Assembly (NCBI GenBank): GCA_963422395.1
Contig: OY729431.1
Location: 992,001-1,056,000, forward strand
From: Vicinamibacteria bacterium
GTDB lineage: Bacteria; Acidobacteriota; Vicinamibacteria; Marinacidobacterales; Marinacidobacteraceae
Direction of reading: 5' to 3'
Length of the DNA: 64,000 nt
Part shown: positions 3,729 to 57,861 of the stretch, one piece after another
How the letters are laid out: each line of letters opens with the position of its first letter
Numbering within the stretch: position 1 is the stretch's first letter
Program-made: the position numbers and the translations under genes
Notes under the pieces: generated by a model
Database searches by the model: none
What the model was told of the DNA's origin: nothing
What the model saw: the letters and a program-made list of their open reading frames with translations, nothing else

Positions 3729-3784
3729 GAGCCCGAGGTGCCGGCTCGCAGCCGGGAAGGGGGCGCTGGGTCCACGAGTGGCTG

Positions 3785-7419: not shown

Positions 7420-9069
7420 ATGTCCCGGCCCGCTCCGATCCGCTTCGAGACCCATCCGTCGCGTTATCGGCACTGGACCCTCGACACCGAAGGTCCGGTC
7501 GCCTGGCTGACGCTGGCGGTGGACGAAGGGGGCGGGCTGCGGCCCGGATACGCGCTGAAGCTGAACAGTTACGACCTCGGGGTGGACATCGAGCTCGCCG
7601 ACGCGGTGGAACGGCTGCGTTTCGAGCATCCGCGGGTGCGCGCGGTGGTGGTGCGGAGCGGTCTCGATCGGGTGTTCTGCTCCGGCGCGAACATCTTCAT
7701 GCTCGCCGCGGCCTCGCACGGATTCAAGGTGAACTTCTGCAAGTTCACGAACGAAACGCGCCTCGCGATCGAGGACGCGAGTGCGAGAAGCGGGCAGCGC
7801 TATCTCGCGGCGCTGTCGGGAACGACTGCCGGCGGCGGGTACGAACTCGCCCTCGCCGCCGACGAGATCCTGTTGGTGGACGATGGCAGTTCGGCGGTCT
7901 CGCTTCCGGAGGTGCCGCTGCTCGGGGTCCTTCCCGGCACCGGGGGTTTGACCCGGGTCCTGGACAAGCGCCGGGTGCGGCGCGATCTCGCCGATGTGTT
8001 CTCGACGCTCGCCGAGGGCGTTCGGGGCCGCCGGGCGCTCGCCTGGGGGCTGGTGGACGGGCTCGCGCCCCGCAGCCGCTTCGAGGACGAAGTCCGCCGG
8101 CGGGCGGCGTCGCTCGCTGCCTCGTCCCCCGCCGCCCTCCCCGAGGCGGCGGTCGGCATCGCCCTGGAGCCGCTCGATCCCGAAGAAGGGGAATGCGGGA
8201 TCCGCTACCGGCATGTCGAGCTCCATTGCGACCGCAGCGCCCGCACCGCCACCCTGACGGTTCGGGCTCCGGCGAACCCGCCCCCGGCCACTGCTGCCGA
8301 GCTGCGGGCTGCGGGATCGGCGCTATGGCATTTGCGGATGGCGCGCGAGCTCGACGACGCGCTCTGCCGGCTGCGCTTCCACGAACCGGAACTCGGAGTG
8401 GTGCTCCTGCGCACAGCGGGAGATCCGGATGCGGTTCGGGAAGCGGATCTCCGGCTGGGCGGGCTCGCTGCGGAGTGGCTCGCGCGGGAGGCCCGCTTTC
8501 GGGTTGCGCGGACTCTCCGCCGTCTCGATCAGACCGCCCGCAGCTTCTTCGCGGTCGGGGAGCCGGGGGAACAGTTCGTGGGGACCCTCGCCGAACTGCT
8601 GCTCGCCGCCGACCGCTCATACCTCTGCGACGATCCCGTCCGGCCTGCCCGGGTCGAGCTGACTCCGGTGAACTTCGGGGCCTATCCGACGGCGAACGGA
8701 CGCTCGCGACTCGAGAGTCGTTTCGTCGGGGAGCCGGAGCGGATCGAAGTCCTGCGGGGGCAGGGGGCGGCGTCCGCCGCCGAGGCCGAGAGGCTCGGGC
8801 TCGCCACCTTCGCCCCCGACGATCTCGACTGGGAAGACGAACTGCGCGTCGCCGTCGAGGAGCGCGCCGGGTTTTCGCCCGACGCGCTGACCGGGATGGA
8901 GGCTTCGCTCCGGTGTCCTGGTCCGGAGACGATGGAAACGAGGATCTTCGGCCGTCTCTCGGCGTGGCAGAATTGGATCTTCCAGCGTCCGAACGCGATG
9001 GGCGAGCGGGGCGCGCTCACCGTATACGGCCGCCCCGAGCGCGCCGCCTTCGATTGGGAGCGGACCTGA
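7420..9069 (+). CDS. boxC: 2,3-epoxybenzoyl-CoA dihydrolase
   Basis: LKLNSYDLGVDIEL, KVNFCKFTNETR and GRLSAWQNWIFQRPNA motifs; ATG at 7420 preceded by CATAAT. Confidence 0.95.
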   Translation: MSRPAPIRFETHPSRYRHWTLDTEGPVAWLTLAVDEGGGLRPGYALKLNSYDLGVDIELADAVERLRFEHPRVRAVVVRSGLDRVFCSGANIFMLAAASHGFKVNFCKFTNETRLAIEDASARSGQRYLAALSGTTAGGGYELALAADEILLVDDGSSAVSLPEVPLLGVLPGTGGLTRVLDKRRVRRDLADVFSTLAEGVRGRRALAWGLVDGLAPRSRFEDEVRRRAASLAASSPAALPEAAVGIALEPLDPEEGECGIRYRHVELHCDRSARTATLTVRAPANPPPATAAELRAAGSALWHLRMARELDDALCRLRFHEPELGVVLLRTAGDPDAVREADLRLGGLAAEWLAREARFRVARTLRRLDQTARSFFAVGEPGEQFVGTLAELLLAADRSYLCDDPVRPARVELTPVNFGAYPTANGRSRLESRFVGEPERIEVLRGQGAASAAEAERLGLATFAPDDLDWEDELRVAVEERAGFSPDALTGMEASLRCPGPETMETRIFGRLSAWQNWIFQRPNAMGERGALTVYGRPERAAFDWERT

Positions 9070-9084
9070 CGAACAGCGAGCAGG

Positions 9085-10491
9085 ATGTCCGAACTCGATT
9101 CCCTGATCCCGAACAATGTGGACCTGTCGGCGGATCCCCGCCTCCAGCGGGCGCTGCTTCGCTGGCAACCCGCTTTCCTCCGCTGGTGGAACGATATGGG
9201 GCCGGAGGGTTTCCGGGGGGACGAGGTGCTGCTGCGGACTGCGGTTTCGGTGGAGCCGTCGGGGTGGTCGCACTTCGATTTCGTGCGGATGCCCGAATAT
9301 CGCTGGGGGATCTTTCTGGCGCCGCCGGAACCGGATCGCCGCATCGGCTTCGGAGACCTCGTCGGCCAGTCGGTGTGGCAGCAGGTTCCGGGAGAATTCC
9401 GGGGCGACCTGAGGCGGCTCATCGTCACCCAGGGGGACACCGAGCCGGCGAGCGTCGAGCAACAGCGGAAGCTCGGCAGTACGGCTCCGAGCCTCTACGA
9501 CCTGCGCAACCTCTTCCAGGTCAATGTGGAGGAAGGGCGCCACCTCTGGGCGATGGTCTATCTGCTCCATTCGCACTTCGGCCGGGACGGCCGCGAGGAA
9601 GCCGATGCGCTGCTCGAACGATCGAGCGGCGATCGAGACCGGCCGCGCATCCTCCAGGCCTTCAACGAGCCTTGCGACGATTGGCTGAACTTCTACCTCT
9701 TCACGATGTTCACCGACCGCGACGGCAAGTACCAGCTCCTCGCGCTCGCGGAAAGCGCCTTCGACCCGCTGTCGCGGACCACGCGCTTCATGCTCACCGA
9801 GGAAGCGTTCCACATGTCGGTGGGGGAGACCGGCGTGGGCCGGATCGTCGAGCGGACCGCGGCGGTGATGGCCGCCGGGGCGGAAGCCCCCGAAGAGGCC
9901 GGGGTCTTCGACCTGCCCCTGATCCAGCGCCACATCAACTTCTGGTTCAGTGCGTCTCTCGACCTGTTCGGCGGAGAGGTGTCCTCGAACGCCGCTCACT
10001 ACTTCGCGAGCGGACTCAAGGGTCGGGCTCGGGAGTCGCGGCACCGGGATCATGCCGCGCTCGAGGGGGTCTATTCCCTGGAGATTCCCGAGGACGGAGC
10101 GTTGCGGCGGCGCGAAGTAGCGCTGCGGAACGCGATGAACGAGGTGCTGCGCGACGATTACATCCGGGATTGCGAACGCGGCGTCGCGCGCTGGAACCGC
10201 ATCCTCGAGGAGGCGGGACTCCGCGAACGTCTCACGCTCCCGAACCGGCGTTTCCACCGGCGCATCGGAGCCTACGCGGCCCACCGGTTCGATCCCGGGG
10301 GCGATCTGGTCGAAGAGGACCGCTGGGAGCGGTGCCGGGACGACTGGCTGCCGACCGCCGCCGACCGCGCCTATGTCGAAAGCCTGATGATTCCGGTCAC
10401 CGAACCGGGCCGGATGGCGTACTGGATCGCGCCGCCGCGGAACGGCGTGAACGGCAACCCGGTCGGCTACGAGTATGTGCGCCGCCCCTGA
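9085..10491 (+). CDS. boxB: Benzoyl-CoA 2,3-epoxidase (diiron) subunit
   Basis: IPNNVDL, QGDTEPASVEQQ, VNVEEGRH and LTEEAFH diiron motifs. Confidence 0.95.
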   Translation: MSELDSLIPNNVDLSADPRLQRALLRWQPAFLRWWNDMGPEGFRGDEVLLRTAVSVEPSGWSHFDFVRMPEYRWGIFLAPPEPDRRIGFGDLVGQSVWQQVPGEFRGDLRRLIVTQGDTEPASVEQQRKLGSTAPSLYDLRNLFQVNVEEGRHLWAMVYLLHSHFGRDGREEADALLERSSGDRDRPRILQAFNEPCDDWLNFYLFTMFTDRDGKYQLLALAESAFDPLSRTTRFMLTEEAFHMSVGETGVGRIVERTAAVMAAGAEAPEEAGVFDLPLIQRHINFWFSASLDLFGGEVSSNAAHYFASGLKGRARESRHRDHAALEGVYSLEIPEDGALRRREVALRNAMNEVLRDDYIRDCERGVARWNRILEEAGLRERLTLPNRRFHRRIGAYAAHRFDPGGDLVEEDRWERCRDDWLPTAADRAYVESLMIPVTEPGRMAYWIAPPRNGVNGNPVGYEYVRRP

Positions 10492-10536
10492 AGCCGATCC
10501 CCTGACCGACGGCGCTTCCTGTATGGAGCTCCCCTG

Positions 10537-11712
10537 ATGGAGGTCGTGGTCGCGGGAGCGCGGCGCACTCCGATCGGGCGGTTCGGGGGTGCGCTGGCCC
10601 CGCTGACCGCTCCCGAACTCGGCGCGGCCGCGGCGCGGGGGGCGCTCGCCGCGGCCGGCCTGCCGGCGGAAGCGGTGGACGAAGTCGTCTTCGGGAACGC
10701 CCGGCAAGCCGGAGTGGGGCCGAATCCGGCGCGCCAGATCGGGCGGCGCGCGGGGCTCTCCCACGCGGTTCCGGCGCGCACGGTGAATCAGGCCTGCGCT
10801 TCGGGGCTCCGCGCGATTCTGGATGCGGCTGCGGCAGTTCGCCTCGGTGAGGCGCAAGCGGTTCTCGCCGGGGGCGTGGAGAGCATGAGCAACACGCCGT
10901 ACTTGCTGCCTGCCGCGCGTTTCGGGCATCGGTTCGGCGATGCCCCGCTCGAAGACGGCATGTTCCGGGACGGATTCCACTGCCCGCTGGCCGATCAGCT
11001 CATGGGGGAGACCGCCGAGACCCTCGCCCGGCAGTACGGGCTCTCGCGTACCGCATGCGACCGGTATGCCGCCCGCAGCCAGAACCGCGCGGAGGCGGCG
11101 CGCGATGCCGGCCGTTTCGAGCCGGAGATCGTCCCGCTGCTGGTGCCGGCGCGGAAGGGGGAGATCGAGGTCACCCGGGACGAGCATCCCCGAGACGGCG
11201 TGACCGCGGAGTCGCTCGCCCGGCTGCCTCCGGTGTTCCGAGAGAACGGGGTCGTCCACGCCGGGAATTCCTCGGGCATCACCGACGGCGCGGCGGCGGT
11301 GGCGGTGCTCTCCGGGGCCCGGGCGGCCGAGCTCGGGATCGAACCGATGGCGCGTCTCGTGGGCAGCGCCACGGCGGGAGTGGATCCGCGGTTGATGGGC
11401 ATCGGGCCGGTTCCCGCGGTCCGTCAGCTGCTGGCGCGAACCGGGCGCCGCCTCGCGGACATCGCGCTCGTCGAGCTGAACGAGGCGTTCGCGCCGCAGG
11501 TGCTCGCCTGCGCCCGCGATCTGGATCTCGCCCCGGACCGGCTCAATGTGAACGGCGGGGCGATCGCGCTCGGGCATCCCATCGGGGCGAGCGGCGCGCG
11601 CATCGTGGTCACTCTGCTCCACGAAATGGAGCGCCGGGATGTGGAGTACGGAATCGCCGCCCTCTGCGTCAGCGGCGGGATGGGGTCGGCGGTCCTCCTC
11701 TCCCGAATGTAG
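10537..11712 (+). CDS. Acetyl-CoA C-acyltransferase (thiolase)
   Basis: [21 protein letters not shown] and CVSGG motifs. Confidence 0.95.
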
Positions 11713-20272: not shown

Positions 20273-20449
20273 TTCCCCGCCGTTTTACTCGACCCGCTGA
20301 TTCACCACTGATTTCGTCCATCCGCTGATTGCGGGGCCGCGCCGCCGCGCGGAGCGCGTTTTCGATCCCTCCCTCCTAGCGCGCCGGGGCGGTTTTCGGG
20401 GCTTTTGGGCGCTTCTTCGCTCGGCTCCTTACAATCGCCCCCCTCCCCG

Positions 20450-23400
20450 ATGCGTGAGACCTTCTTCGAGCGCCCGATCCTGAACTCCCCCTACGAGGTT
20501 CCGGACCGCCATTGGAAACTCGGCCCGGACGGAGTTCCGACCGACGAGATCGCCGCGGCCCGCCGGGCAGCGGAGTTCCTCTCTCCGGTACCCCCGCCGA
20601 AGCCGCAGCGAGGGGGGCCGCGTCGGCTGGCGCTGGGAGAAGCGCGCCTTTCGACCGCCGAACAGCAATACGACCCCTATCCGGTCATCAATCGGATCCG
20701 CCAGGAGGTGGACCGCTGGCGCGAGCTGCCCGAGGCGAAGTGGGGCGTCACCCGGGAGACCGCCCTCCTCCTCCGCCACTGGCGCAGCCACGAATTCAGC
20801 ACCCGCCGCCCCTTCTTCTGCCAGGTCGAGGCGGTGGAGACCGCAATCTGGCTCGTCGAGGCCGCGGGGTTGCTCCGGGAATCGGGGGAGAACCTGCCGC
20901 ACCGTTTCCGCCGCATCTGGAAGCACCTCCACCACGCGAACCGGGCGGCGAATCCGCAGCTCCTCCGGGTCGCGCTGAAGATGGCGACCGGCGCCGGGAA
21001 GACCACGGTGATGGCGATGCTGATCGCCTGGCAGACGGTCAACGCGGTCCGCCACCCGAAGCGACGGAGCTTCACCCGCGGCTTTCTGGTGGTGACTCCG
21101 GGCATCACCATCCGCGACCGGCTGCGGGTGCTGCTCCCGAACGATCCGAACAGCTACTTCCGAAAAGGCAGTGAACTCGTTCCCCGCGAGATGCTCGGCG
21201 ACCTCCAGCGCGCCGAGATCGTCATCACCAATTTCCACGCCTTCCAGCGGCGCGAACGGATGAAGCTCGCGAAGGGAACCCGCTCGCTGCTCCAGGGCCG
21301 GGGGACCCCACCCAGCACCGTAGAAACCGAGGGCGAGATGCTCCGCCGGGTGATGTCCCGCCTCCTGGGGAAGAAGCACATCCTGGTCCTGAACGACGAG
21401 GGGCACCACTGCTACCGGGAGAAGGCCGGCGGAAGCGAGGAAGGGAGGCTCGTCGGGGAAGAAAGGGAGGAAGCGCAGAAGAACCAGCAGGCAGCGCGCG
21501 TCTGGATCAGGGGCATCGAGACGGTGCGGCGGAAGATCGGCGTTCCCGTCGTCTTCGACCTCTCCGCCACCCCCTTCTTCCTGCGCGGCTCCGGCTATGC
21601 CGAAGGGACGCTCTTCCCCTGGACGGTCAGCGATTTCTCACTCATGGACGCCATCGAGTCCGGCATCGTGAAACTGCCGCGGGTTCCGGTCTCGGACAGC
21701 GTGAACCCCGACGACCGGCCGCGGCTCCGAGACCTCTGGGAGCACATCGGGAAGAAGATGCCGAGGAAGGGCCGCCGGCAGAGCGCCGGTTCGCTCGATC
21801 CGGGACACCTCCCACCGCTCCTCGAGACCGCCTTCTCGGCGCTCTATTCCCATTACGAGAAGACCTTCGACCGTTGGCAGGAAGCCGGTATCGAAACGCC
21901 GCCGGTCTTCATCGTCGTCTGCAGCAACACCGCGGCCTCGAAGCTGGTCCACGACTACCTCGCGGGATACGAACGAAAGCGCGCGGACGGCGAAACCGAG
22001 GTCGAAAACGGCCGGCTGGAACTCTTCCGCAACTACGACGAGAACGGGACCCGCTTGCCGCGCCCCCGGACGCTGCTCATCGACAGCGAACAGATCGAGT
22101 CCGGCGACGCACTCGACCCCGCTTTCCGGAAAGCCGCGAAGGATCAGATCGAGCGCTTTCGGCGCGAGATCGTGGACCGCACCGGCAGCCGAGCGGATGC
22201 AGAGGCGATCTCCGACGCCGATCTGCTGCGCGAGGCGATGAACACTGTCGGCAAGCCCGGGCGGCTCGGGGAAGACATCCGCTGCGTGGTGTCGGTCTCG
22301 ATGCTCACCGAAGGCTGGGACGCCAATACGGTGACCCACATCCTGGGCATCCGGGCTTTCGGAACGCAGCTCCTCTGCGAACAGGTGGTGGGCCGGGCGC
22401 TGCGCCGGCAGTCGTACGAGCGAAACAGCGAAGGCCGGTTCGATCCCGAATACGCCGAGGTGCTGGGCATTCCCTTCGACTTCACCGGCAAACCGGTTCC
22501 CGTTCCCCTTCCCAAGCCGCCGCCCCCGGTGACGCATGTCCACGCGGTGCGGCCCGAGCGCGACGCCCTGGAAATCCGTTTCCCCCGCGTCGCGGGGTAT
22601 CGAAGGGAGCTCCCCGAGGATCGGCTGACCGCCCGCTTCACCGCCGACTCCACGATCGTCCTGACTCCGGCACTCGTGGGGCCGATGAAGACGACGAATC
22701 AGGGAATCGTCGGCCTTCCCGCCGAGTTGCGGCCCGATCGGAACCAGGACATCCGCGAAGCGACGCTCGCCTTCCATCTCGCCCGCGACCTGCTGCGCCG
22801 CCATCTCTACGGTGCGGGCGAAGAGCCCCGCTTCCATCTCTTCGGTCAGGTGAAGCGGATCGTGCGCGATTGGCTCCGGGACGGGCACCTCGTCTGCGAG
22901 CCGGGAACCCATCGGGGGCAGCTGCTCTACGAAGAACTGGCGGCGATGGCATGCGAACGGATCACTGCCGCGGTCACCGCCGCCTCCGGCAGCGAGCGGC
23001 TGCTGGCGGTCCTCGACCCCTGGAATCCGGAAGGCTCGACGGGGGCCGTGGACTTCCGAACCTCGAAGACGACGCTCTGGCGGGCCGACCCCGGGAAGTG
23101 CCCGGTGAACTGGGCGGTCTGCGATCTCTCCTGGGAGGAAGAATTCTGCCGGGTGGTCGAGGCGGAGCCGAGCGTCGGGGGGGTTGCCGTCGAGGGGTTT
23201 GCCGTCGAGGCGTATGTGAAGAATGCCGGGCTCGGGTTCGAGGTTCCCTACCGACTCGCCGGAGAGGCCCACCGCTATCTGCCGGACTTCATCGTCCGGG
23301 TCCGGGACGGTGCGGGCGAGCCCGTCCACATCGTCGTCGAAGTCAAGGGGAGGCCGGACGAGAAATCGAAGGCGAAGGCGGAGACGATGCGCTCCCAGTG

Positions 23401-23530
23401 GGTTCCCGGAGTGAACGGCCTCGGAACCTTCGGCCGCTGGGCGTTCCTGGAACTGCGGAACATCTCCAGCATGGCGGCGGAGTTTCGGAGGTTCGTCGGC
23501 GCGCTCGGCGCCGAAAGCGAAGCTGCCTAG
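20450..23530 (+). CDS. res: Type III restriction endonuclease subunit (BPTD_3080-like)
   Basis: KMATGAGKT, NDEGHH, LSATP, MLTEGWD helicase motifs; C-terminal YLPDF...VEVKG nuclease. Confidence 0.92.
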   Translation: MRETFFERPILNSPYEVPDRHWKLGPDGVPTDEIAAARRAAEFLSPVPPPKPQRGGPRRLALGEARLSTAEQQYDPYPVINRIRQEVDRWRELPEAKWGVTRETALLLRHWRSHEFSTRRPFFCQVEAVETAIWLVEAAGLLRESGENLPHRFRRIWKHLHHANRAANPQLLRVALKMATGAGKTTVMAMLIAWQTVNAVRHPKRRSFTRGFLVVTPGITIRDRLRVLLPNDPNSYFRKGSELVPREMLGDLQRAEIVITNFHAFQRRERMKLAKGTRSLLQGRGTPPSTVETEGEMLRRVMSRLLGKKHILVLNDEGHHCYREKAGGSEEGRLVGEEREEAQKNQQAARVWIRGIETVRRKIGVPVVFDLSATPFFLRGSGYAEGTLFPWTVSDFSLMDAIESGIVKLPRVPVSDSVNPDDRPRLRDLWEHIGKKMPRKGRRQSAGSLDPGHLPPLLETAFSALYSHYEKTFDRWQEAGIETPPVFIVVCSNTAASKLVHDYLAGYERKRADGETEVENGRLELFRNYDENGTRLPRPRTLLIDSEQIESGDALDPAFRKAAKDQIERFRREIVDRTGSRADAEAISDADLLREAMNTVGKPGRLGEDIRCVVSVSMLTEGWDANTVTHILGIRAFGTQLLCEQVVGRALRRQSYERNSEGRFDPEYAEVLGIPFDFTGKPVPVPLPKPPPPVTHVHAVRPERDALEIRFPRVAGYRRELPEDRLTARFTADSTIVLTPALVGPMKTTNQGIVGLPAELRPDRNQDIREATLAFHLARDLLRRHLYGAGEEPRFHLFGQVKRIVRDWLRDGHLVCEPGTHRGQLLYEELAAMACERITAAVTAASGSERLLAVLDPWNPEGSTGAVDFRTSKTTLWRADPGKCPVNWAVCDLSWEEEFCRVVEAEPSVGGVAVEGFAVEAYVKNAGLGFEVPYRLAGEAHRYLPDFIVRVRDGAGEPVHIVVEVKGRPDEKSKAKAETMRSQWVPGVNGLGTFGRWAFLELRNISSMAAEFRRFVGALGAESEAA

Positions 23531-23552
23531 CAGCCGCGTAGAGGGAGACCCG

Positions 23553-26530
23553 ATGGCGAAGAAGCGCACGACGAAGAAGCCGATCGCGGTGGAAGCGACC
23601 CGGCACTCGTCCTCGAATCGGCTGAACCTGCCGAGCGCCGAGCACGAGCCCCTCGTTCCGGAGGGCGACCGGGCTCCGATTCCGGTTCGCTACCCGCGAA
23701 ACCCGGACCTCGACCCGCAGCTGGTCTGGAGGGGAAAGGACGAACGGGCAGAAGAGTCCGAGCTCGTCGTTCCGGCGCCGCCGCTCTACATCCAGGAGCG
23801 GGTGCAGCCGAAGGCGCTGGTGGACGACCTGCGCCGAGAGACCCTGCACCGGAAGATGCAGCGCAGCGAAGACTGCGCTGAGAATTCGGGGGGGGGGGGG
23901 GGGTAGCTCCCTCTCTCTTCGCTGATTTCAACGGCCTTCCGGAGGGCGCCGACCGGACCGATTTCTATCAGCACCGGGGGAACTGGTCGAACCGGATGAT
24001 CCTGGGAGACTCGCTGCGGGTGATGGCGAGTCTCGCCGAGCGCGAGGGGCTGCGCGGCAGAGTGCAGTGCATCTACCTCGATCCCCCCTACGGGATCAAA
24101 TTCCAATCGAACTTCCAGTGGTCCACCGGCAGCCGGGATGTGAAGGACGGCAAGAGGGAGCACATCAACCGCGAACCCGAGCAGGTGAAGGCGTTCCGGG
24201 ATACCTGGAAGGACGGCATCCATTCCTACCTGAGCTATCTGCGCGACCGGTTCGCCGCGGCGCGGGAGCTGCTGACCGAGAGCGGCAGCCTCTTCGTCCA
24301 GATCGGCGATGAGAATGTCCACCGTGTGCGCGCTCTGCTGGACGAAGTGTTCGGCCCGGAGAACTTCGTCAGACAGATCGTCTTCAAGAAAACCGGCAGC
24401 ATGGTTTCCGATGCGTTGGGAAGGACGGGCGACTACATCCTTTGGTATGGAAGGGTCAGCAGAGATCTGAAATATCGACAGTTGTTCACGCAGAAAGAAC
24501 CAGATGCCTTCTACAACTTCGTGGAGAAGGCTGATGGTGCGATCGTGAAGCTCACCGACGCGGAGAGGGCTGGATTGCCCCAGGAGACTCGAGACTCACG
24601 AGTCCTCCGACTCGTGAGTCTCGAGTCTCCTGGGGCAAATCGAGAAGACTCTCCCTTCGCGTTCGAGGGTGAAACCTTCAGCCCCAAGGGAAACAGCCAC
24701 TGGAAAGTAACTTGGCCGGACAGCATGAATGCTCTCGTGAGATCCGGTCGAGTGGTCAAGGCAGGACAGAAACTGCGGTGGAAATACTTCATCAAGGACT
24801 ACCCGGTCAAGGTGATTTCCGAGATTTGGCAAGACACTTCGGGCTTCAATCGGGATCAAAGGTATGTCGTCGAGACGCGACCGAAGGTCATTCAGCGTTG
24901 TGTCCTGATGACCACCGATCCCGGGGACCTGGTGCTCGACCCCACCTGCGGCTCGGGCACGACGGCGTATGTCGCCGAGCAGTGGGGGCGGCGCTGGATC
25001 ACCATCGATACCTCGCGGGTCGCCCTCGCGCTCGCCCGCGCCCGGATCATGGGCGCGCGCTTCCCCTACTACACCCTGGCCGACAGCCCCGAAGGGCAGC
25101 AGGCCGAGGCGAAGCTTTCGGGCCGGGCACCGCAGACCGGCCCGACGTACGGCGACCTGCGCCAGGGTTTCGTGTATGGGCGGGTCCCCCACATCACCCT
25201 CAAGGCCATCGCCAACAACGCCGAGATCGATGTGGTCTGGGAGCAGCGGCAGCCGGCAGTCGAGGCAGCGCTCGCCGGGCTGAACCAGGCGCTCGCGGGG
25301 CACCAGTCCCCGTTCCCGGTGGCCCGCGGCGCCCGGAAAGGGCAGGCGGTGCACTTCACCTCTCGGAGTGGAACGGTCCGACTCCCGAACGGCGACCCGG
25401 CGCCGGCCGCCGGCCTCCTCGAATGGGAGGTCCCGCGCGAGCCGCCCGCCGATTGGCCCCCCGCCGCCCGCACTGCGGTCTCCTCGTTCTGGAGAGCCCG
25501 AAAGATACGGCAGCAGGAGATCGACGCCGCGATCGCCCGGCAAGCGGATTTCGAGCCTCTCCACGATAAGCCGGCCGAAGACGAGACGAGAGTCCGGGTC
25601 GCCGGTCCCTTCACCGTCGAGAGCCTGGCCCCCCACCGGACCCTGGCGGTGGATGAAGAGGACGAGCCGATCCTGCGCGCCGCCGAGCCCCGCGCCCCCT
25701 ATGGCAGCGGGAGCAGCGGCCCCGGCGATTTCGCTCCCATGATCCTGGAACAGCTGCGCACCGCTGGAGTCCAGCAAGCGCGGAAGCGAGACCGGATCGA
25801 GTTCTCCTCGCTAACCCCCTGGCCGGGTATCTACCTCGCCGCCGAAGGGCGCTACTCCGAAGGGGAACGCGAGCGGCGCGCCGGGATCCTCATCGGCCCG
25901 GAGTTCGGCACGGTTTCGCGTCCGGATCTCGCCGCCGCGGCGCGGGAGGCGGCCGAAGCCGGTTTCGATGTCCTGGTGTGTTGCGCCTTCGCCTACGACC
26001 CGCACGCCGCCGACCTTGCGAAGCTCGGCAGGGTGCAGGTCCTGAAGGCGCGGATGAACGCCGACCTCCACATGGCCGAGGTTCTGAAAGACATCGGGAA
26101 GGGCGATAAAACGAAGGGCAATCTGTTCGTGATCTTCGGCGAACCCGACATCGAGATCGAGGAGATCGGGCCCTCCGGTGAATCCGGCGGCGGTGAGGAG
26201 CGGTTTCGAGTGCGGCTCCGGGGCGTCGATGTGTTCCATCCGCAGACCGGCGAGATCCGCAGCGACAGCGCCGACGGGGTCGCCTGCTGGTTCCTCGACA
26301 CCGAGTACGACGGGGAGAGCTTCTTCGTCCGCCACGCCTACTTTCCCGGCACCGCGAACGACCCCTGGAAGGCGCTCCGGAAGACCCTGAATGCCGAGAT
26401 CGACGAGGAGGCCTGGGAGAGCCTCCGCCGCGATGTCTCCCGCCCCTTCCCGAAGCCCCCGACGGGCCGCATCGCCGTCAAGGTCATCAACCATCTCGGC
26501 GACGAAGTGATGCAGGTCTTCCGCGTCTGA
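23553..26530 (+). CDS. mod: Type III DNA methyltransferase, frameshifted at a G16 tract (OFF as assembled)
   Basis: 23553-23906 stops right after the G tract; G17 or G14 joins it to VAPSLFADFNGLPEGADRTDFYQH..NWSNRMILGDS; DPPY and DPTCGSGTT motifs. Confidence 0.9.
23888..23903 (+). repeat. Homopolymer G16 in mod
   Basis: AATTC-G16-TAG read directly from sequence. Confidence 0.9.
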
Positions 26531-26560
26531 GCGGAGGGCCGACCGACGACCGTCTCCGCC

Positions 26561-29500
26561 TCACGGCGGGGTGACATCCAGCACGATCACCGCGGCGCGC
26601 TGCCGCTCCTCCGGGGTCAGCTGCGCAACGAGCCGCTCCCGCAGCTCCTCGGGAGTCCGGGGCCGCGACCCCTCTTCGGCCGGGGCGGTGCGCTCCGGCC
26701 CGAACCACAGGACCAGGAAGATCCCGAGGCCTGCTGCCGCCGGATCGTTCGCATAGTGCGGGAGCAGCTGCTTCTGCACCGCCTGCCAGAGTTCCCGGTG
26801 GCAGTTCTTCTTGATCTCCACCGGGACGGCGAAGCCGCCGCACGCGATGCGGAGGTCGGCGCGCCGGCCCCCGGCGTGCTGCTGTTCCGGTAGCGCTTCG
26901 CATCCCCGGGGCAGCTTCGAGCGCAATAGCGGGAGCAGGGCGTCCCGGCAGGAGTTTTCCGGTTTGGGTTCCGTCGGCCTGGCGTGACGATCCTCGTTCC
27001 AGAACTGCCGCCAGAGGTTGGCATTCGTGGTTCGGGTCTCCTCGGCGATCTGTTCCAGCCGGTCTACCACCAGCGCGCGCAGATCGGCCGCGCTCGCGGG
27101 CGGCCCGTCAGCGAGTGTCGCGATCACTTCTTCCGGGGCGGGAGGCCGGTAGTCGGCGTCCCGGCGAATCACCCGCTGGGTGTCCAAGGCGTGCTCGAGG
27201 CGGCTCCGCCATGCCGAGAGCTCCGGATCCGAAGCGAGACCGCAGAGGATTCTCGTCGTCTGTGCCTCCGGAGACCTGGAGAGATTCCCGATGAGGCTTT
27301 CGATGAGGTCGGGGGATACGCCGTCGAAGGCCCTGGTCCTGCCCGGCGGGAGCGGGTCGGTGGACCTTCCGAGCGTCCGGATGGTGAGCTCCAGCACCGG
27401 GGGCGTCAGGCGCTCGATCAGGCCGGGCGGCGGGGATGACCCCAGCGACCTGAAGAAGCCGGCGAAATTTCGGACCCGGGCTTCCGAACCTCGCAGTTCG
27501 GCGGACAGCACGGCAAGGAACCGGTCCGGATCGAGCACCAGCCCGGCCGTCAGCCAGCGCAGCCGGGCGCCCCGGGTCGTGCTCTTCTGTGCGGCTTTCC
27601 TCTCGATCAGCTCTCGGAACGCCGCTTCGCCGGACCCGGAGTCGAGATAGCGCAGGCCGCTCAGCAGGAGAGCATCGAGGAGGCCGAGCTGTCCTTCCCT
27701 CGCCCGCGCCGGAAACGCCCGCAGCAGCGGCAGCACGGCGCGCCGCGCCACCGGTTCGTGGCGTTCCTCGTGGGCCAGCCGGTGGAAGTCGGGGATATAG
27801 ATCTCTCCGGCTTGCAGCAGGATCCGGCCGGCGATCACAAGCACCTCCGCCGCCAGCTCCGGCTGTTCCTGGACGCACTGCCAGTACCAGTCGGCCTCCT
27901 GGGAGAAGGCGTACTGGTCGTGGAAGCAGAGGCGGCAGGCGAGCACCGTCCGCAAGCGGGCTTTCGTCAGCCGCCGGAAGCGGTCCGGTTCCATTTCCGC
28001 GGCCGCCGCCAGCACCGGCAGCACCAGGAGATGCATCCGGTCGCGCCGCCTCGCCGCCAGGATCTCCTTCGCCGAGGGCAGGTCGGGCCGGTCGGAGGTG
28101 TCGAGCACGGCGCCGAGAGCGGTCGTCGTCAGCGCCTCGTCGCCGCCGAGGGCCTCGGTCAGCCGGTTCCGCCGATCCAGTCGGCTGTGCGCCCCCGGCT
28201 CGTAGCTCCCTGCGTAGTACTCCTCGGCGATCTCGAAGAGCAGTTCCGGACGCCCCCGATTCGCCCGGAGTTCGTCCGCCGAGCGGCGCACCGCCTCCAG
28301 CAACGGGGCGTGCGGCGGTGCGGTTTCGCTTCGCAGCTGCTTCCAGCGTTTCGCCTCGTCGAGGTGACACCGGCCGATGTCCTCGGGAAGGCTCGATCGG
28401 TAGAGGAGCGCGTCCAGAGCAGGGCTCTCTTTCGCCCGCAAGGCCGTCCGGATCACCGCTTTCTGGACATCGGGGTTCGCTTCGAGCCAGGCGGCGACCG
28501 GACGGAACGTTTCTCGGGGCTGGTCTCGGGGCTGGTCGAGTGCGGCCGCCGCTCCTGCCTGGAGCCAGTGGAAGAGGCGCAGAGGTTCCACCTCGGTGCC
28601 GTACCGCTCTAGGCCGCGCGCGAGCAGCCGTGAGAACGAGCTGCGCAGGGAACGGTCGAACCAGGTGCGTTCCAGCCAGGTGCTTGCGAGCGGCCCGGCG
28701 CCTGAAAGGCGGTCGAGATGGATCGGCAGGTGGTCCTTGGGGCAGCTCTCATAGAGTCTCTGCCAGAAACCGTAGGGGCGCTCCATGACCGGACGGGACC
28801 GATGGGGGAGGTAATCCCAGACTTCCGCGGGTTCCAGGCCGCCGGGATAGAGCTCGTCGAGCAGTCTGCCGGGCAGTTCTCCGTCGGGGGCGTGGATTCG
28901 TCCCTGGTGGATCTCGTCGAGGAGGCTGCGGAGGCGGCCGACTCGGTCGGGCTCGTTCTGCAGGCTCGCAATCCAGGTGTCGAGAGCGGACCGTCGCACC
29001 CGCGACTCGCGGGAGTCGTCGCGAACGATCTCCAGCAGCTCGTCCGCCAGCCGGAGTGCCAATCGGGATGCCAGTCGGGCGCTGGAGAGCGCCATCATGG
29101 CGACTTCCACCACCCTGCGGTCGGGATCACGCAGCGCCTGCTTCAGCGTGGGCTCCAGGTCCGGGGTGGCGAGAGCGCCGAGAGCGGAGACCGCCCCGCC
29201 GGTGTCTCCGAGACGGTTGGACTCCCGTCCGACGGCGTGGAACAGGAGCCTCTTCTCTTCGAGGGTGGATTCGGTGACATCGCCGTAGAGCAGCACCGCG
29301 GCCGGATCGCGCTCGATCAGCGGTCGGCGGAGTGCCGGCGAGGCCGCCGCGAGCCAGGCGGCGAGCCCGCGCAGCGGTGTCGGCGGGACATCGTCCGTTC
29401 CGGCGAGAAGCGCCAGGACCCGCCCCCGCGGGAGGCTTTCGGCGACGAGCCGGGAGAGCCACCGCGCGGCGAGGAAGGCGGCGAGGTGCGCGTGCTGGGG

Positions 29501-30430
29501 TCGGAAAAATCCCTTTCCGGCGGAGGTCCTGTCGGCGGAGAAAAGCCGGGTCCCGAGCACTGCGCGGAGCGCATCCCGGCACTCGTCTCCGTGAGCCGTG
29601 ATCGGGATCCAGTCGTTTTGCGGCGCATCATCCCGGGAGAGTGCGTGCCCGGCGGCGCCGGAGAGCAGCTGGACGGCCGAGAGCCGCCCGGCGGCGTCCA
29701 GCAAAGCCTCCAAAGCCTCCATCAGCGGCTGATTCCGGTTTCCGATTCGGTGTTCTTCGTTCTCTTCCCGGGCGAGGAGCTTCGAAGCCTGCTCGAAGGT
29801 CTCCCGCCGGCTCGCCGGCCACTCGCCGGTCGTGCCGAAGACTTTCGCCAGCAGCGTCAGGTTCTGTGGATTGCGAAGCAGTCCGTCGAGTCCCCGGCCC
29901 CGAGCTTCCCGGAGGAATTCCTCCGGATCGCCGATATCCGGGCGCTCGGAAACGAGCCGGCGGGCTTCCTCGCCGGTCAGCGGCTCCAGGCGGAGGACCA
30001 CGACTTCCCGGTTCGGCGAAACCTTCTCCAGGTGCTTTCGGTCGTTGCTTCCGAGCCAGTCGGCCTCCCGGCAGGAGAGGCGGAAGGGCGGTCGTTTCAG
30101 CTCGTCGAGGCGGGAGTGGATCCTGTCGAAGGGTCGACGCCCGTCCGGCTCGCCGGCGCGCACCTCGTCGAGTCCGTCGATCAGCAGCGTCCGGCCTCGC
30201 CATTCGGGGTTCGGCTCGCCGGCCAGGAAGTCCCGAGCCGAGAGGAAGAGTGCGTTTCCCTGCGCGGCTTCGGCTCGGGCTTCGGTCTCGAACGCGGTCG
30301 TCTTCCCGGCGCCGGGATCGCCGAGCAGCACATAGGCGGGAGTGTCCCGGTACGCCGCGAGCGGTTTCGACTCGTACAGTTGGCCGTTCGGCCCGATCCG
30401 CTGGACGGAGCGGTCGAGGATCTGTCCCAT
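26561..30430 (-). CDS. NACHT/STAND NTPase with C-terminal PD-(D/E)xK-like nuclease (Avs/bNACHT-like)
   Basis: GDPGAGKTT, LLIDGLDE, long helical region, C-terminal RRADLRI...VPVEIKK. Confidence 0.82.
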   Translation of the reverse strand: MGQILDRSVQRIGPNGQLYESKPLAAYRDTPAYVLLGDPGAGKTTAFETEARAEAAQGNALFLSARDFLAGEPNPEWRGRTLLIDGLDEVRAGEPDGRRPFDRIHSRLDELKRPPFRLSCREADWLGSNDRKHLEKVSPNREVVVLRLEPLTGEEARRLVSERPDIGDPEEFLREARGRGLDGLLRNPQNLTLLAKVFGTTGEWPASRRETFEQASKLLAREENEEHRIGNRNQPLMEALEALLDAAGRLSAVQLLSGAAGHALSRDDAPQNDWIPITAHGDECRDALRAVLGTRLFSADRTSAGKGFFRPQHAHLAAFLAARWLSRLVAESLPRGRVLALLAGTDDVPPTPLRGLAAWLAAASPALRRPLIERDPAAVLLYGDVTESTLEEKRLLFHAVGRESNRLGDTGGAVSALGALATPDLEPTLKQALRDPDRRVVEVAMMALSSARLASRLALRLADELLEIVRDDSRESRVRRSALDTWIASLQNEPDRVGRLRSLLDEIHQGRIHAPDGELPGRLLDELYPGGLEPAEVWDYLPHRSRPVMERPYGFWQRLYESCPKDHLPIHLDRLSGAGPLASTWLERTWFDRSLRSSFSRLLARGLERYGTEVEPLRLFHWLQAGAAAALDQPRDQPRETFRPVAAWLEANPDVQKAVIRTALRAKESPALDALLYRSSLPEDIGRCHLDEAKRWKQLRSETAPPHAPLLEAVRRSADELRANRGRPELLFEIAEEYYAGSYEPGAHSRLDRRNRLTEALGGDEALTTTALGAVLDTSDRPDLPSAKEILAARRRDRMHLLVLPVLAAAAEMEPDRFRRLTKARLRTVLACRLCFHDQYAFSQEADWYWQCVQEQPELAAEVLVIAGRILLQAGEIYIPDFHRLAHEERHEPVARRAVLPLLRAFPARAREGQLGLLDALLLSGLRYLDSGSGEAAFRELIERKAAQKSTTRGARLRWLTAGLVLDPDRFLAVLSAELRGSEARVRNFAGFFRSLGSSPPPGLIERLTPPVLELTIRTLGRSTDPLPPGRTRAFDGVSPDLIESLIGNLSRSPEAQTTRILCGLASDPELSAWRSRLEHALDTQRVIRRDADYRPPAPEEVIATLADGPPASAADLRALVVDRLEQIAEETRTTNANLWRQFWNEDRHARPTEPKPENSCRDALLPLLRSKLPRGCEALPEQQHAGGRRADLRIACGGFAVPVEIKKNCHRELWQAVQKQLLPHYANDPAAAGLGIFLVLWFGPERTAPAEEGSRPRTPEELRERLVAQLTPEERQRAAVIVLDVTPP

Positions 30431-33422: not shown

Positions 33423-33854
33423 TTACCGCTCCGGTTTTTTCCAGTCGAGCGGGTTCGGGCGATAGCGGGGTTCTGCCCAGGGAGTCTCCGCCACGGGCAG
33501 AGCGGCGGTGGGGGCCGCTCCGGCTCCGGGAGGCTCGCCGGAGTCCGGGTCGGTTCCCTGAACGACGGCCAGATACTCGAGGATCTGCTCCCGGACTTCG
33601 GGTTCGAGCGGTGGCATCCCCATTCCCAGCATCAGATCGAGGATTCCGTCCCATTCGCCGCGCGCGAGTTTCAGGGAGACGATGTAGCTGTCGTCGTGGC
33701 AGTAGAGACAGTTCTCGCGCACGAGTTCCACCCCCTCGCCGTCCTTCAGAGAGTCGGCGGGGGGGAGCTGCGGCGACGGCGCCGCAGCGAAAGCGGAGAC
33801 CGGCAGCGAAATCAGAACGGGCAGGGCGGCGAATACCGCGCCGAGGGGCCGCAC
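33423..33854 (-). CDS. Periplasmic monoheme cytochrome c (SorB-like)
   Basis: Signal peptide, CLYCH heme motif, directly downstream of sulfite oxidase. Confidence 0.85.
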   Translation of the reverse strand: MRPLGAVFAALPVLISLPVSAFAAAPSPQLPPADSLKDGEGVELVRENCLYCHDDSYIVSLKLARGEWDGILDLMLGMGMPPLEPEVREQILEYLAVVQGTDPDSGEPPGAGAAPTAALPVAETPWAEPRYRPNPLDWKKPER

Positions 33855-33855
33855 T

Positions 33856-35082
33856 TCAAACCACCGTGACCGCGATGCGGTGCATGGCGTTGTTCAGGTA
33901 GCCGCGCGGGTTCCAGCCGGGCGTCACCATCGGCTGCTGACGGCCCCGGTGGTCGGTCGCCCGCGCCCAGACCTCGTAGTGGCCGGGGATGTCGAAAGCC
34001 ACCGAGCCTTCGAAACGCTGCCAGGCGAAGCGGTTCTCGGGCTCTTCGAGGCGGCACTCGATCCAGCGGGCGCCGAAGTCCGCGCTCACCTCCATCGCTG
34101 TCACCGGTCCACCCCCGGCCCAGGCCCAGCCGTGGACGGAGAGCGGGCCCGCCACCGGATGCCGCATCCCGGTTCCGGGACGGGTGATGACGGATTTCAC
34201 CGGCATCTCGCCGATGATCTCCATGTCCTCTTCCGGAACCTCGGCGCCGGGGGACACCGGATAGCGCGGCATCCGGTAGGAATGACCGGTCATCTTCGGA
34301 CCGTCGTGCACCCGGTCGCGTACCCACAGTTGGCGCAGCCACTTGCCGCTGGCCGAGGCCGGGAGACCGGGAGCGACGAGGCGGAGGGGAAAGCCGTGGT
34401 GCGGGGGCAGGGGCTCGCCGTTCATCTCCCAGGCGAGCAGGGGAGATTCCTCCATCGCCTTCGAGATCGGCAGCCCGCGGGAGATGGGGATCTGGTCCGG
34501 GTCACCGCTCAGGTGCGGGTCTTCGCCGTACCAGGCGAGATAGACGGCGGTGTCGAGGATTCCCGCGGCGTGCAGCACATCGCGGAGCCGGACTCCGGTA
34601 TAGCGAGCGCAGCCGACCGCGCCCAGCCACCACTGGTTGCCCGAAGTTCCCGGCGAGAATCCAGCCCTGCCGTTTCCGGCGCATTCCAGCACCAGCGCCC
34701 GACGGACATTCTCGAAGCCCGAGATCAGATCCTCGAGCGAGAGCGTCAGCGTCTGCTCGACCTCTCCGACCACTTCGAGCGACCAGCCCTCGAGCTCTCC
34801 GGAGAGCGCGCGGGCGGGCACATCTCCGTTGTTCCGCACGAAGTGTTTCTCGTTCGGAGTGAAGCGGGGATCGAGGTCGGTCACCCAGGTCTCGGCGTTC
34901 ACCGGGCGCTCGCTGAGGACTCGGAGATCGCTCTTGCCCTCGACCGACCCAACGGACCGGGCGGCCTGCTGTCCGCGCCGGGGAGACCCCGCCCCCGAAT
35001 GCGCCGGAAGCGCCGCGGCGCCGATCGCGACCGGCGCCGTTCCGAGGAACCGCCGTCGCGAAAGGGCCGCTCCCGGTTCCAT
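33856..35082 (-). CDS. Sulfite oxidase family molybdoenzyme (SorA/SoxC-like), Tat exported
   Basis: SRRRFLG Tat motif, HFVRNN, LECAGNGR, HGFPLRL motifs. Confidence 0.92.
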   Translation of the reverse strand: MEPGAALSRRRFLGTAPVAIGAAALPAHSGAGSPRRGQQAARSVGSVEGKSDLRVLSERPVNAETWVTDLDPRFTPNEKHFVRNNGDVPARALSGELEGWSLEVVGEVEQTLTLSLEDLISGFENVRRALVLECAGNGRAGFSPGTSGNQWWLGAVGCARYTGVRLRDVLHAAGILDTAVYLAWYGEDPHLSGDPDQIPISRGLPISKAMEESPLLAWEMNGEPLPPHHGFPLRLVAPGLPASASGKWLRQLWVRDRVHDGPKMTGHSYRMPRYPVSPGAEVPEEDMEIIGEMPVKSVITRPGTGMRHPVAGPLSVHGWAWAGGGPVTAMEVSADFGARWIECRLEEPENRFAWQRFEGSVAFDIPGHYEVWARATDHRGRQQPMVTPGWNPRGYLNNAMHRIAVTVV

Positions 35083-37030: not shown

Positions 37031-37627
37031 CTAGTTCAGGGGGATGTCCAGGAATTCGTGTTCGTAGATGGCTTCGCGGATCTGGGCTGGACTCGCCCCT
37101 TCGTCATGCATCTTCTTGGCCAGGAGGACCTCCTGGAGACAAGTGCTTCAAGTGGCCGCGTGGTTGTCCACATAGCAGTCGAGAAGGCTGCCGTGATCCT
37201 CGGCCTGAGAGTGGCACCCGCAGAGGCAGGGCAGCTGGACCAGCACTTCCGGGATCTCTTTGGCGAGCGCGTAGGTCGTGCGCAGCGCCTCATGGGTGTA
37301 GGTGTTCGGCGGCAGCGTGACCGGGAACGGCCGGGCCTCCTCGGGAGAGTCGTGGTACGGGAAGGACTTCGCCCCGGAGTGGGCGTCCGGGGCCAGATCC
37401 TGAGCCGGGTCTCGGGACAGCTCTTCCCTGCCGGCGGTGTCCGTGGTGTCGTCGCCGACGACGGCCACCAGGAAAACCGCCGCGCCGCCGACGAGAAACG
37501 CCACGGCCAGGAAGGGGGCGAAGCGAAAGCCCTGCTTCCGGGCGGACGACTCCGCCGGTCGGGCCGGGGGGAGCCCGGAGGGGGGTCCGGGCGGGCGGGA
37601 GGTCGAATGCGAGCGTCGTTTCTTCAT
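37031..37627 (-). CDS. PCYCGC/CYCXC-type metal-binding protein, probable selenoprotein (UGA at 37148-37150)
   Basis: LPCLCGC...LLDCY..NHAAT-UGA-STCLQEV...IREAI continues in frame to TAG at 37031; SECIS-like hairpin; selB in window. Confidence 0.85.
37115..37143 (-). promoter_or_regulatory. Bacterial SECIS-like hairpin
   Basis: CCAGGAG-GUC-CUCCUGG stem-loop starting 11 nt after UGA, GU-first loop, CUUG/CAAG lower stem. Confidence 0.75.
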
Positions 37628-37653
37628 GGCCGGCCCCATATCCTAACAACCTC

Positions 37654-55225: not shown

Positions 55226-55911
55226 TTCCGGCGCGAAGCGCCGGGCGGTCCGGGAACGGGGCGTTTTCTCTCGTGCCACAGGGGTGCGGGGGGCGACACG
55301 AGATCACGCCCCGCCCGAGAGAGTCGCGATCTCCGTTGCGGCCTAGAAAACATCTGATGCGGCCGAAGCTGTGCTTCGGGCGCGGCGCGGTGGGGGAAAG
55401 TGTGAAAGGGGGTTCACCCCCGTTCACGAATTGGTGACACCGAATCGCACTCGCTGCCGCCACGCTTCCAGCGTGACGGCGAACCGGGTTCGAGGAGCGG
55501 AGGGAGCGGCAGGAGTGCGATTCCCGGCGCGAAGCGGCGGGCGGCCCGGGAAGGGGGCGTTTTCTCTCGTGCCACAGGGGTGTGGGGCGCAACACGAGAT
55601 CACGCCCCGCCCGAGAGAGTTTCGACTTTCCTCTGCGGCCCAGAAAACATCTGATGCGGCCGAAGCTGTGCTTCGGGCGCGGCGCGGTGGGGGAAAGTGT
55701 GAAAGGGGGTTCACCCCCGTTCACGAATTGGTGACACCGAATCGCACTCGCTGCCGCCACGCTTCCAGCGTGACGGCGAACCGGGTTCGAGGAGCGGAGG
55801 GAGCGGCAGGAGTGCGATTCCCGGCACGAAGCGGCGGGCGGTCCGGGAACGGGGCGTTTTCTCTCGTGCCACAGGGGTGCGGGGGACAACACGAAATCAC
55901 GCCCCGTTCCC
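55224..55911. repeat. Tandem ~296-bp palindrome-rich repeat, about 2.3 copies
   Basis: Units start at about 55224, 55519 and 55816 (GATTCC..GCGAAGCG); near-identical apart from a short variable segment. Confidence 0.9.
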
Positions 55912-57861
55912 GGCCCGCTCGGCCCGGATGCGCCTCCGGTTGCCGATCCGCACCGTGACCCGTTCCCGGTCCAGCCACTCGAGCAGCGGGATCGCGTATT
56001 TCCGACTCAAGTCGAAGTTCTCCTTGAACCAGCCTACCGAGATCTCGGGTGTGCTCTTCTGACCGGCCTCGGCGCCGAGCGCGCCGTGGTCCACCACCGC
56101 CTGCCGCAGCCGGGCGAGGTGTTCGGCGTCGAAGTAGAGATCGGGGCTGACCGCCACCGCCCGGCCCTCGCGCTCCAGCAACCGGCGCAGCGCGGAAACG
56201 AGCGCCAGCGGCGCTCGGAGCGCGGTCGCTGCCTCGGCGAGGGTAGGGGGCGCGACTCCCCGTTCCGAAAGGAGTCGGACGAAGCCGTCGGACACCCGCT
56301 GCTCCGCTGCAGTCAGCTCGATCCGCCGCCCGGCGCTCTCCACCGTGTCCTGGGTTCGCTCCACCGCCCCGTCTCTCGCGAGCCGATCCAGGAGGCCGCC
56401 GGTGACCGCGGGGGAGATGCCCGCCTGTTCCCGGAGTTGTTCGACCGCCATCCCCGCCCGCAGGCGGTGGTTCGCTTCCCAGGTGGAGAGCAGGGTGAGC
56501 ATCCGGGCTTCGAGAGACGAGACGCTCGCTGCCGCGAGCAGGGTTCGTGCTTCTCCGGCGCCGAAGCTCACGAGCTGGCAGCGCCCTTCGAGCGCCCGGA
56601 CCACTTCCGCCGCCGCCGCCGGTCGGAGTCCGAGCCGCGGGGCGAGTTCGGCCTCGCTCGTTCCCCGCGGGCCGGCTTCCGCAGCGAAGGCGATGGCGGC
56701 GGCCGCATCGTCTCTGCCTTCGAGCGCGGCCACCGCAGCCCGTCCCCGCCGGCTTCCGGGAGACCGCTTCGGCGGGGAGGCATCGAGCACCGTGCCTCCG
56801 CCGATGGTGATCACCGGAGAGTAGCGGCGGATGATGTAGCGGTCGCCCCGCACCGCGGCGAGAGGGGTCTCGAGACGGAACTGGACGAAGTCGGACTCGC
56901 CCGCGGGGAGCTGTTTCCGGCCGCCGAGCAGGCGCGCCCGGGCGAGGACTGCGGCGGCGCCGAGGTGCAGATGCACGCGGTCTTCGTCCCGGAGCGGCCC
57001 TGCGGCCCCGTCGAGCAGTTCGAGCCTGGCGTCGAGCATCCGGGTGGCTCGGAGCTCCCCCGGTGCGGCGACCAGCGCCCCCCGCTCGGGGCGCAGCCGG
57101 CCGCCGGCGCGGCCGCTCCCGGCGAGGTTCAGGGCAGCCCGCTGCCCGGCGCTGGCGGCGGCGGCGGCTTCGCCGTGCACCTGCAGCCCCCGCACCCGGG
57201 CACGCTCCCCGCCGGGGAGGATCTCGACTTCTTCCCCGATCGCGGTCCGGCCGGAGGTGAGGGTGCCGGTGACCACCGTGCCGAAGCCGCGCATGGTGAA
57301 GGCGCGGTCCACCGGAAGCCGGAACGGGCGGTCCGTTTCCCGAGATCCGATCGTAGCGGCCGCCTCTTCGAGCGCGGCGAGCAGCCGGTCGAGCCCGGCG
57401 CCGGTCCGGGAGGACACCGGCAGGATCGGCGCCCCGGCCATTGCGTTCCCGGAGAGCAGTTCACTGACTTCGAGGCCGGCGATTTCGATGAGCTCCGGAT
57501 CGTCCACCAGATCGGTCCGGGTGAGCGCGACCACCGCGCGTTCGACGCCCAGCAGGCGGCAGATCTCGATGTGCTCGCGGGTCTGGGGCATCACCGACTC
57601 GTCGGCTGCCACCGCGAGCAGCACGACATCGAAACCGGCAGCGCCCGCCAGCATGTTCCGCACGAAGCGTTCGTGGCCGGGAACATCCACGAAGCCATAG
57701 GTGACGCCCCCGCGCTCCAGGTGGGCGAACCCCAGATCCACCGTGATTCCCCGCGCCTTCTCCTCTTCGAGCCGGTCCGGATCGATCCCGGTGAGCGCGA
57801 GCACCAGCGAGCTCTTGCCGTGGTCTATGTGGCCGGCGGTACCGACCACGAGGTGCCGCAT
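55897..57861 (-). CDS. selB: Selenocysteine-specific elongation factor
   Basis: [26 protein letters not shown]-terminal [13 protein letters not shown] winged helix. Confidence 0.96.

Follow-up and report, generated by a model that had tools for sequence, protein, structure and literature searches.

The window, by which we mean the whole 64-kb stretch of DNA that was analysed, carries on its minus strand, from 37627 to 37031, a full coding sequence of the CYCXC/PCYCGC (OS_HP4) family that runs from ATG to TAG and, with an in-frame TGA read as U, translates into 198 residues with U at position 160. Under translation table 11 the open reading frame ends at 37148, with the TGA at 37150-37148; after U160 the frame continues with STC, in total 38 sense codons, to the TAG. 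Retranslation with TGA as U bears out the first-pass annotation, which had described this stop and this continuation. The ATG at 37627 was picked as start because homologues start at the same methionine, and an alternative in-frame ATG lies 12 nt upstream, at 37639. No sigma-70 promoter match was found for the gene, and two terminator-like matches both fall inside it. Translation of 37031..37627 on the plus strand gave no family-like protein and was discarded. The gene is on its own in this setting: a fused MFS/spermidine-synthase-like gene and a PQQ dehydrogenase gene diverge from it, rlpA converges with it, and a SorAB-like pair lies close by. This pair (33423-35082, minus strand) comprises a SorA-like molybdoenzyme and a SorB-like cytochrome c, both below NCBIfam cut-offs; 17 of 81 loci have a SorA-like gene in the vicinity of the CYCXC gene, the more distant L029 and L036 among them.

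The protein scores 101.2 bits on NCBIfam NF041379, "CYCXC family (seleno)protein" (OS_HP4; cut-off 90), and 41.7 bits on Pfam PF13798 (PCYCGC; cut-off 25). It shares the UxxC of the family, with the selenocysteine of that motif present at the level of sequence. Its CxCxC motif reads PCLCGC (residues 133-138, 37214..37231, minus strand; C134, C136 and C138) and is followed by the further conserved positions C151, U160 and C163. The family comprises 2,145 representatives at 50% identity; no phage copy was found. Recoding is already known for the CYCXC/OS_HP4 family, to which the window gene adds one member. Two reviews, PMC13188914 and PMC9312934, tabulate OS_HP4 as a UxxC protein, and PMC9312934 credits it to Zhang and Gladyshev 2007 (PMC1976440), the main text of which does not name OS_HP4. 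These tables and the NCBIfam entry substantiate the statement in the first-pass annotation that selenocysteine (Sec) forms of the family had been annotated.

To compare the site across genomes, we scanned GTDB genomes, which gave at least 582 loci, and retained the 80 best; among these 80, the closest relatives of the window protein come from Acidobacteriota genomes labelled Candidatus Marinacidobacterium or Vicinamibacteria. At codon 160 (37148..37150, minus strand), the predicted selenocysteine and first position of UxxC, 39 loci have TGA, 36 TGC and 5 TGT, and the xxC and conserved tail follow the site in all 80, the tail being 38-45 codons long in the TGA loci. Cysteine occupies the U160 position in all 148 other rows of the protein alignment. 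In these alignments, the in-frame UGA is aligned with a conserved cysteine and has conservation on either side, so that the UGA takes the place of the first Cys of the family CxxC, as had been proposed, and the Cys/Sec pairing and conservation past the UGA that the first-pass annotation suggested looking for are both present. The loci share kinship, so that neither the TGA/Cys counts nor the stem counts given below are independent; on a tree rebuilt without the SECIS-constrained columns, the Sec/Cys states need 4 changes, and at least 2. On the tree that retains those columns, two loci labelled Heliobacteriaceae (L027 and L049) sit among Blastocatellia, pointing to mislabelled bins or transfer.

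Database proteins present a different picture from genomic DNA. Among 65 protein hits, 48 (the window's own included) end right before the codon and 17 go on with Cys. Since the frame nevertheless stays open in the genomes, these ends are attributable to truncation by gene callers, which the first-pass annotation had anticipated. Homologues ending at this position, which it had named as a refutation, do therefore occur as database entries, but the genomic frame runs on. The annotation loss is considerable: the 48 truncated entries have lost both the UxxC and the final three helices.

The TGA is followed, after an 11-nt spacer, by a hairpin that we assign from its fold and from comparison as a putative bacterial SECIS upper stem-loop (37120..37136, minus strand). 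Its arms (37136-37130 and 37126-37120) form 7 Watson-Crick pairs around a 3-nt loop, GUC (37129-37127), that starts with G, then U, and lies 18 nt from the UGA; the stem coordinates confirm the 7-bp, GU-first hairpin 11 nt past the UGA noted in the first pass. The bacterial SECIS model of PMC13188914 (Fig. 2 legend) has a loop of 3-9 nt, a stem of 4-16 bp, a spacing of 16-37 nt, a G within the first two loop positions and an energy of -7.5 kcal/mol or lower, and the window hairpin falls within every one of these limits. With the stem also conserved in the Sec loci, the earlier claim of bacterial SECIS geometry holds. Loop size and GU start, 7-bp stem, 18-nt loop distance and an energy below -7.5 kcal/mol are shared with the Escherichia coli fdhF-type SECIS/SelB recoding system; unlike that element, the window hairpin constrains the protein sequence and is without an Rfam match, none being found at gathering scores anywhere in the 64-kb window. 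The folding energy (-13.8 kcal/mol over 41 nt; z -1.43) was equalled by 16 of 200 shuffles and is thus not unusual alone, and 51 of the 915 TGA triplets in the window, which has 70% GC, satisfy a relaxed SECIS pattern. A strict geometry, in which 6 or all 7 pairs form at +12 and the loop is GU, fits a single one of the 915, namely CYCXC codon 160, and 40 of 28,562 across the 80 loci, 39 of which are the family's own codon. As this strict pattern was defined from this very hairpin, the real evidence is the comparative test.

In that test, a perfect 7-pair stem is present at the same offset in 38 of 39 TGA loci versus none of 41 Cys loci, and the loop begins with GU in 39/39 versus 1/41. From the peptide and local codon usage, only 0.91 perfect stems would be expected among the 39 TGA loci, and the chance of one in the window's own gene is 0.07. 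Compensatory changes on both sides occur in 3 of the 7 pairs, and 99.4% of cells are paired in the alignment (25 of the 40 Sec sequences aligned), compared to 37-58% in slid controls. The putative SECIS also shapes the protein's sequence, as judged from codon comparison: the loop codon (37127-37129) encodes Val (GTN) in 39/39 Sec loci and 1/41 Cys loci, and across the 80 loci Gln or Lys at +5 covaries with a CTG or CTT Leu codon at +9.

A selB gene for the selenocysteine-specific elongation factor, which acts in trans, lies 18 kb off on the same strand (55897..57861). It had already been reported in the first pass, and with 295 bits it exceeds the TIGR00475 equivalog cut-off of 242 over model positions 2-580 of 581. 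Its neighbours are a kynureninase gene and a cyanophycinase-like gene; neither selA nor selC was seen alongside. Neither ARAGORN nor Rfam located a tRNA-Sec gene (selC) in the 64-kb window or near selB, the 28 ORFs scanned in the window included no selA or selD, ARAGORN found no tRNA-Sec within the 39 Sec loci, and tblastn found no selB in any fetched locus. TGA is also the usual stop in the window, terminating 17 of the 22 further genes that were checked; the code is thus not reassigned, and recoding would be site-specific.

We consider it very probable, from the site comparison and the hairpin, that UGA160 is decoded as selenocysteine to give the 198-aa product with UxxC. Two other readings have to be weighed. 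An opal-reading tRNA could insert cysteine, or some other residue, at the UGA: according to PMC5389517, selC*-type tRNA-Cys whose anticodon is UCA occurs next to selB-like genes, and there are suppressor-like allo-tRNAs in Acidobacteria; the window, where no selC was found, would be compatible with such a tRNA. Against this, the passages on selC* in PMC5389517 place it in Firmicutes, Thermodesulfobacteria, Nitrospirae and Proteobacteria, the hairpin agrees with bacterial SECIS, selB exceeds an equivalog cut-off and curators list the family among the selenoproteins, making this reading highly improbable. Still more improbable is that the UGA is a true stop in a truncated gene or pseudogene. The 48 of 65 database hits ending at this residue would agree with a stop, as would the results for selA and selD among the window ORFs scanned and for selC in the window. 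However, all 39 TGA loci have an open frame of 38-45 codons with xxC that matches the Cys forms, and the hairpin is kept at synonymous sites and absent from the Cys forms, including L040, a Cys locus without stem that sits among Sec loci on the tree that retains the SECIS-constrained columns. Locus comparison, codon-usage expectation and covariation thus largely refute the true-stop reading, as far as sequences can, and leave selenocysteine as our preferred assignment.

From N- to C-terminus, the protein consists of a basic, disordered segment, a hydrophobic helix (residues 37-57; 37457..37519, minus strand), acidic residues, a linker and a conserved helical core (residues 102-190; 37058..37324, minus strand) delimited by profile, alignment and core model. 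The helix has a hydropathy of 2.8 and separates 9 K+R versus 1 D+E before it from 2 K+R versus 7 D+E after it, so that it is predicted to be an N-in/C-out anchor or signal sequence that places the core outside the cytoplasm. A hydrophobic N-terminal segment is present in 127 of 140 family members and a strict Tat motif in none of the 140. The membrane-anchored, exported protein envisaged in the first pass is supported by these predictions, and we think it likely that the protein is exported and helix-anchored, with its core outside the cytoplasmic membrane. The long N-terminal extension with helix anchor distinguishes the window protein from the Bacillales copies seen, which are lipoprotein-like.

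Eight positions of the core are 99-100% conserved among 149 proteins: C134, C136, C138, H145, C151, H156, C/U160 and C163. The core model (pLDDT 95, pTM 0.87) contains helices only, and in the predicted structure UxxC opens helix 161-175. In fold searches neither the full nor the core model matched anything at E 0.001 or Z 8, the best hit (Z 5.3) being a designed protein, a result that does not show that the fold is new; searches of PDB sequences with the window protein returned nothing useful. At the H156 position, the three aligned Burkholderiales copies have Met; at the U160 position, one Bacillus copy has His and two have Gln. Met or His in place of His, Cys or Sec keeps a soft-metal ligand. 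The Met at H156 and the His at the U160 position would thus fit a ligand role, and in the aligned copies the Gln in two Bacillus proteins shows that the U160 position can be lost. Fused forms also occur: P0118 has two CYCXC domains, a c-type cytochrome stretch and a domain that looks similar to the CcmH domain (Pfam) of P0196, P0149 is a tandem duplicate, and P0163 carries a ResA/TlpA-like domain. A search for longer fused forms returned none, which is weak evidence by the tool's own note.

To see what accompanies the gene elsewhere, we compared all ORFs of at least 80 aa in the 80 loci with 12 query proteins of copper handling. No copper gene was found in the 64-kb window or in the loci of its 22-row clade. 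By contrast with this lone setting, in 8 of the 80 GTDB loci the family gene is part of, or close to, a cusCBA-type operon, and four of the eight are Sec forms. TIGR00914 scores above its cut-off in 7 of the eight, and in L023 its match is cut by the locus end. The family gene directly follows cusA, with gaps of 3 to about 100 nt, in L043, L050, L063, L064 and L067, follows cusA and one further gene in L047, and directly precedes cusC in L034; in L023 cusC follows at a distance of 3.8 kb, and a multicopper oxidase gene lies upstream. The copies in L063 and L064 are in addition flanked by a copper-type P1B-ATPase gene. A more distant CusA/CzcA-family pump 3 kb away in L039 was left out of the eight. 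The other 71 of the 80 loci, a set in which 24 are shorter than 16 kb, gave no match to a CusA/CzcA-type pump, CopA or multicopper oxidase. Fewer than 1% of random 16-kb stretches would be estimated to hold cusA. Mapped on the rebuilt tree, the cus label takes 5 changes, only 1 of them forced by well-supported branches. As to other neighbours, a chromate transporter gene follows the Cys-form genes in L071, L072 and L079, with DoxX between in L072 and L079, and the Cys-form genes in L060 and L073 are convergent on a MauE gene.

Relatives 27-37% identical to the window protein occur in 38 records of a plasmid collection, 13 of which, picked to cover genera, were examined; these copies are a biased sample that favours metal islands and includes several near-copies of one island. 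All 12 annotated regions, from Burkholderiales and Bacillales, lie amid copper/heavy-metal genes. The Burkholderiales neighbours are cus-type pumps, cueR, multicopper oxidase, CopC/D, SCO, DsbD and TlpA; those in Bacillales are P1B-ATPases, ArsR/SmtB, CopZ, a four-helix copper-binding protein, YdhK, ars and mer. The 13th region is unannotated, and a profile scan found a Zn/Cd-type P1B-ATPase four genes upstream; its order is ArsR-like, Zn/Cd-type ATPase, SCO-like, DsbA-like, DsbB-like and PCYCGC, the genes other than the ATPase being named by likeness to an annotated region. Such islands do not single out one metal, since they contain Zn/Cd, As and Hg genes as well. A chromosomal family copy adjoins an Fe3+-binding protein gene in PMC13068155.

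Five acidobacterial copies come right after cusA, where the Burkholderiales islands carry a "copper-binding protein" gene, a position that invites comparison with CusF. Like SCO proteins, whose genes are also neighbours, the family would be anchored and thiolate-based. CusF is a beta-barrel and SCO an anchored, thiolate-based protein with a thioredoxin fold, whereas the core model has helices and no beta strands, so both are works-like candidates only.

These observations suggest the following model. SelB would bind the GU-loop hairpin after the UGA and insert selenocysteine at residue 160. The protein would then be exported and anchored by helix 37-57, leaving its long, flexible linker and its Cys/His core on the outer side of the cytoplasmic membrane. 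There, five Cys, one Sec and two His may coordinate Cu(I) or other soft metals. The protein would serve as a buffer or chaperone alongside metal efflux systems (CusCBA, P1B-ATPases, multicopper oxidase) and would rely on thiol-disulfide relays of the envelope (DsbD/TlpA, BdbC/BdbD); Sec may tune one ligand, as a more ionised, softer donor. With eight conserved Cys/Sec/His donors and neighbours in metal efflux and thiol relays, soft-metal binding is the simplest reading, and since the window gene stands alone, a metal function is carried over to it from the family. Whether the core acts as an extracytoplasmic binder, buffer or chaperone for Cu(I) or soft metals is, in our judgement, evenly balanced. 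The first-pass annotation had left the function at "metal or redox"; this is still inferred, and the neighbourhoods tilt it towards copper/heavy-metal handling. We would put forward more tentatively, as a possibility we would not bet on, that CYCXC/PCYCGC proteins are an unrecognised extracytoplasmic copper-resistance component, a thiolate/selenolate Cu(I) buffer or chaperone with a fold that lacks a solved relative and is perhaps CcmH-derived, and that some Acidobacteriota CusCBA operons use the Sec form, which would be a selenoprotein acting directly in copper detoxification.

The same selenoprotein might instead be a thiol-disulfide oxidoreductase, with UxxC as catalytic redox pair in a fold remotely related to CcmH/NrfF. 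The remaining Cys and His would then hold a structural metal or disulfides, and the protein would repair or reduce envelope thiols, for example in copper stress or cytochrome c maturation. A helix N-terminus is the usual location of a redox pair, and UxxC is predicted at one. Foldseek ranks two CcmH N-domains highest for the core model (2kw0, E 2.5; 2hl7, E 3.6), comparison of the model with 2hl7 gives Z 3.6 and rmsd 4.4 over 65 aligned residues, and profile alignment (hhalign) to three CcmH-like domains scores 23.7 with 37% probability, above 40 of 40 column shuffles. The CcmH profile is limited to these three rows because a search for more CcmH-like domains gave only the query. The fusions in P0163, P0196 and P0118 would also suit a redox role, as would the DsbD, TlpA, CcdA, BdbC/D-like and SCO genes that recur close to relatives. 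CcmH/NrfF proteins (PF03918; 2hl7, 2kw0) resemble the family further in being small and helical, in placing a Cys cluster behind the first helix and in having a comparable helix-turn-helix at the C-terminus.

However, all structural scores for this likeness are below significance, the CcmH-like templates were chosen by eye, and when the family profile was run on two CcmH-like N-terminal domains, 124 and 11 of 200 shuffles scored as high. The window protein has six Cys/Sec and two His where CcmH has one CxxC, shows no match to Pfam CcmH at E up to 1, and is not encoded in a ccm operon; a Pfam CcmH match occurs in 1 of 149 members, via the fused domain of P0196, and ccmF with a ccmH-like ORF lies about 3 kb off in 1 of 80 loci (L022). 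The Gln and His at the U160 position in the three Bacillus copies would, moreover, not be tolerated in a catalytic thiol unless those copies are inactive. We therefore regard the oxidoreductase as a less favoured, though not far-fetched, explanation and the CcmH link as a lead only. Metal binding and redox activity are not exclusive of each other.

What is new is the lead that places the CYCXC family in copper/heavy-metal handling outside the cytoplasm. A full-text literature search, with subscription papers mostly outside its scope, returned none linking PCYCGC/CYCXC proteins to copper. PMC13188914 names other selenoproteins tied to heavy-metal resistance, and a copper role, even if true, would extend this known theme. 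With Sec at this site in 39 of the 80 nearest loci, nearly all labelled Acidobacteriota, the family also offers a clean natural Cys/Sec pair.

Several further features were noted in the loci and the window. A loose scan of both for other UGA-plus-hairpin candidates returned, by eye, only shadow-frame noise; it did not flag short AhpC/TSA and CMD fragments near Sec-form genes (L038, 8330-8590, and L048, 5160-5402, both minus strand) that could be UGA-split selenoproteins. In L092, a second, degenerate PCYCGC copy (8049-8537) that has lost 2 of 6 Cys lies 1.7 kb from the intact one across a transposase, and a DDE transposase is near the family gene in L004 and L014 (14286-15605 in L014). The window itself starts with an ORF that appears transposase-like by eye (102-437, plus strand). 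A 96-nt tRNA-Arg(GCG) called by ARAGORN (3690-3785, minus strand) overlaps the lipA start, is without Rfam support and is probably false. At 9085-11712 (plus strand), boxB (benzoyl-CoA epoxidase, above cut-off) is followed by a thiolase, both genes of aerobic benzoate degradation. Finally, of three long ORFs at 20405-30430, two (20405-26530) resemble by eye a restriction-modification pair and the third (26561-30430; 1289 aa) looks NTPase-like; together they may form a defence island.
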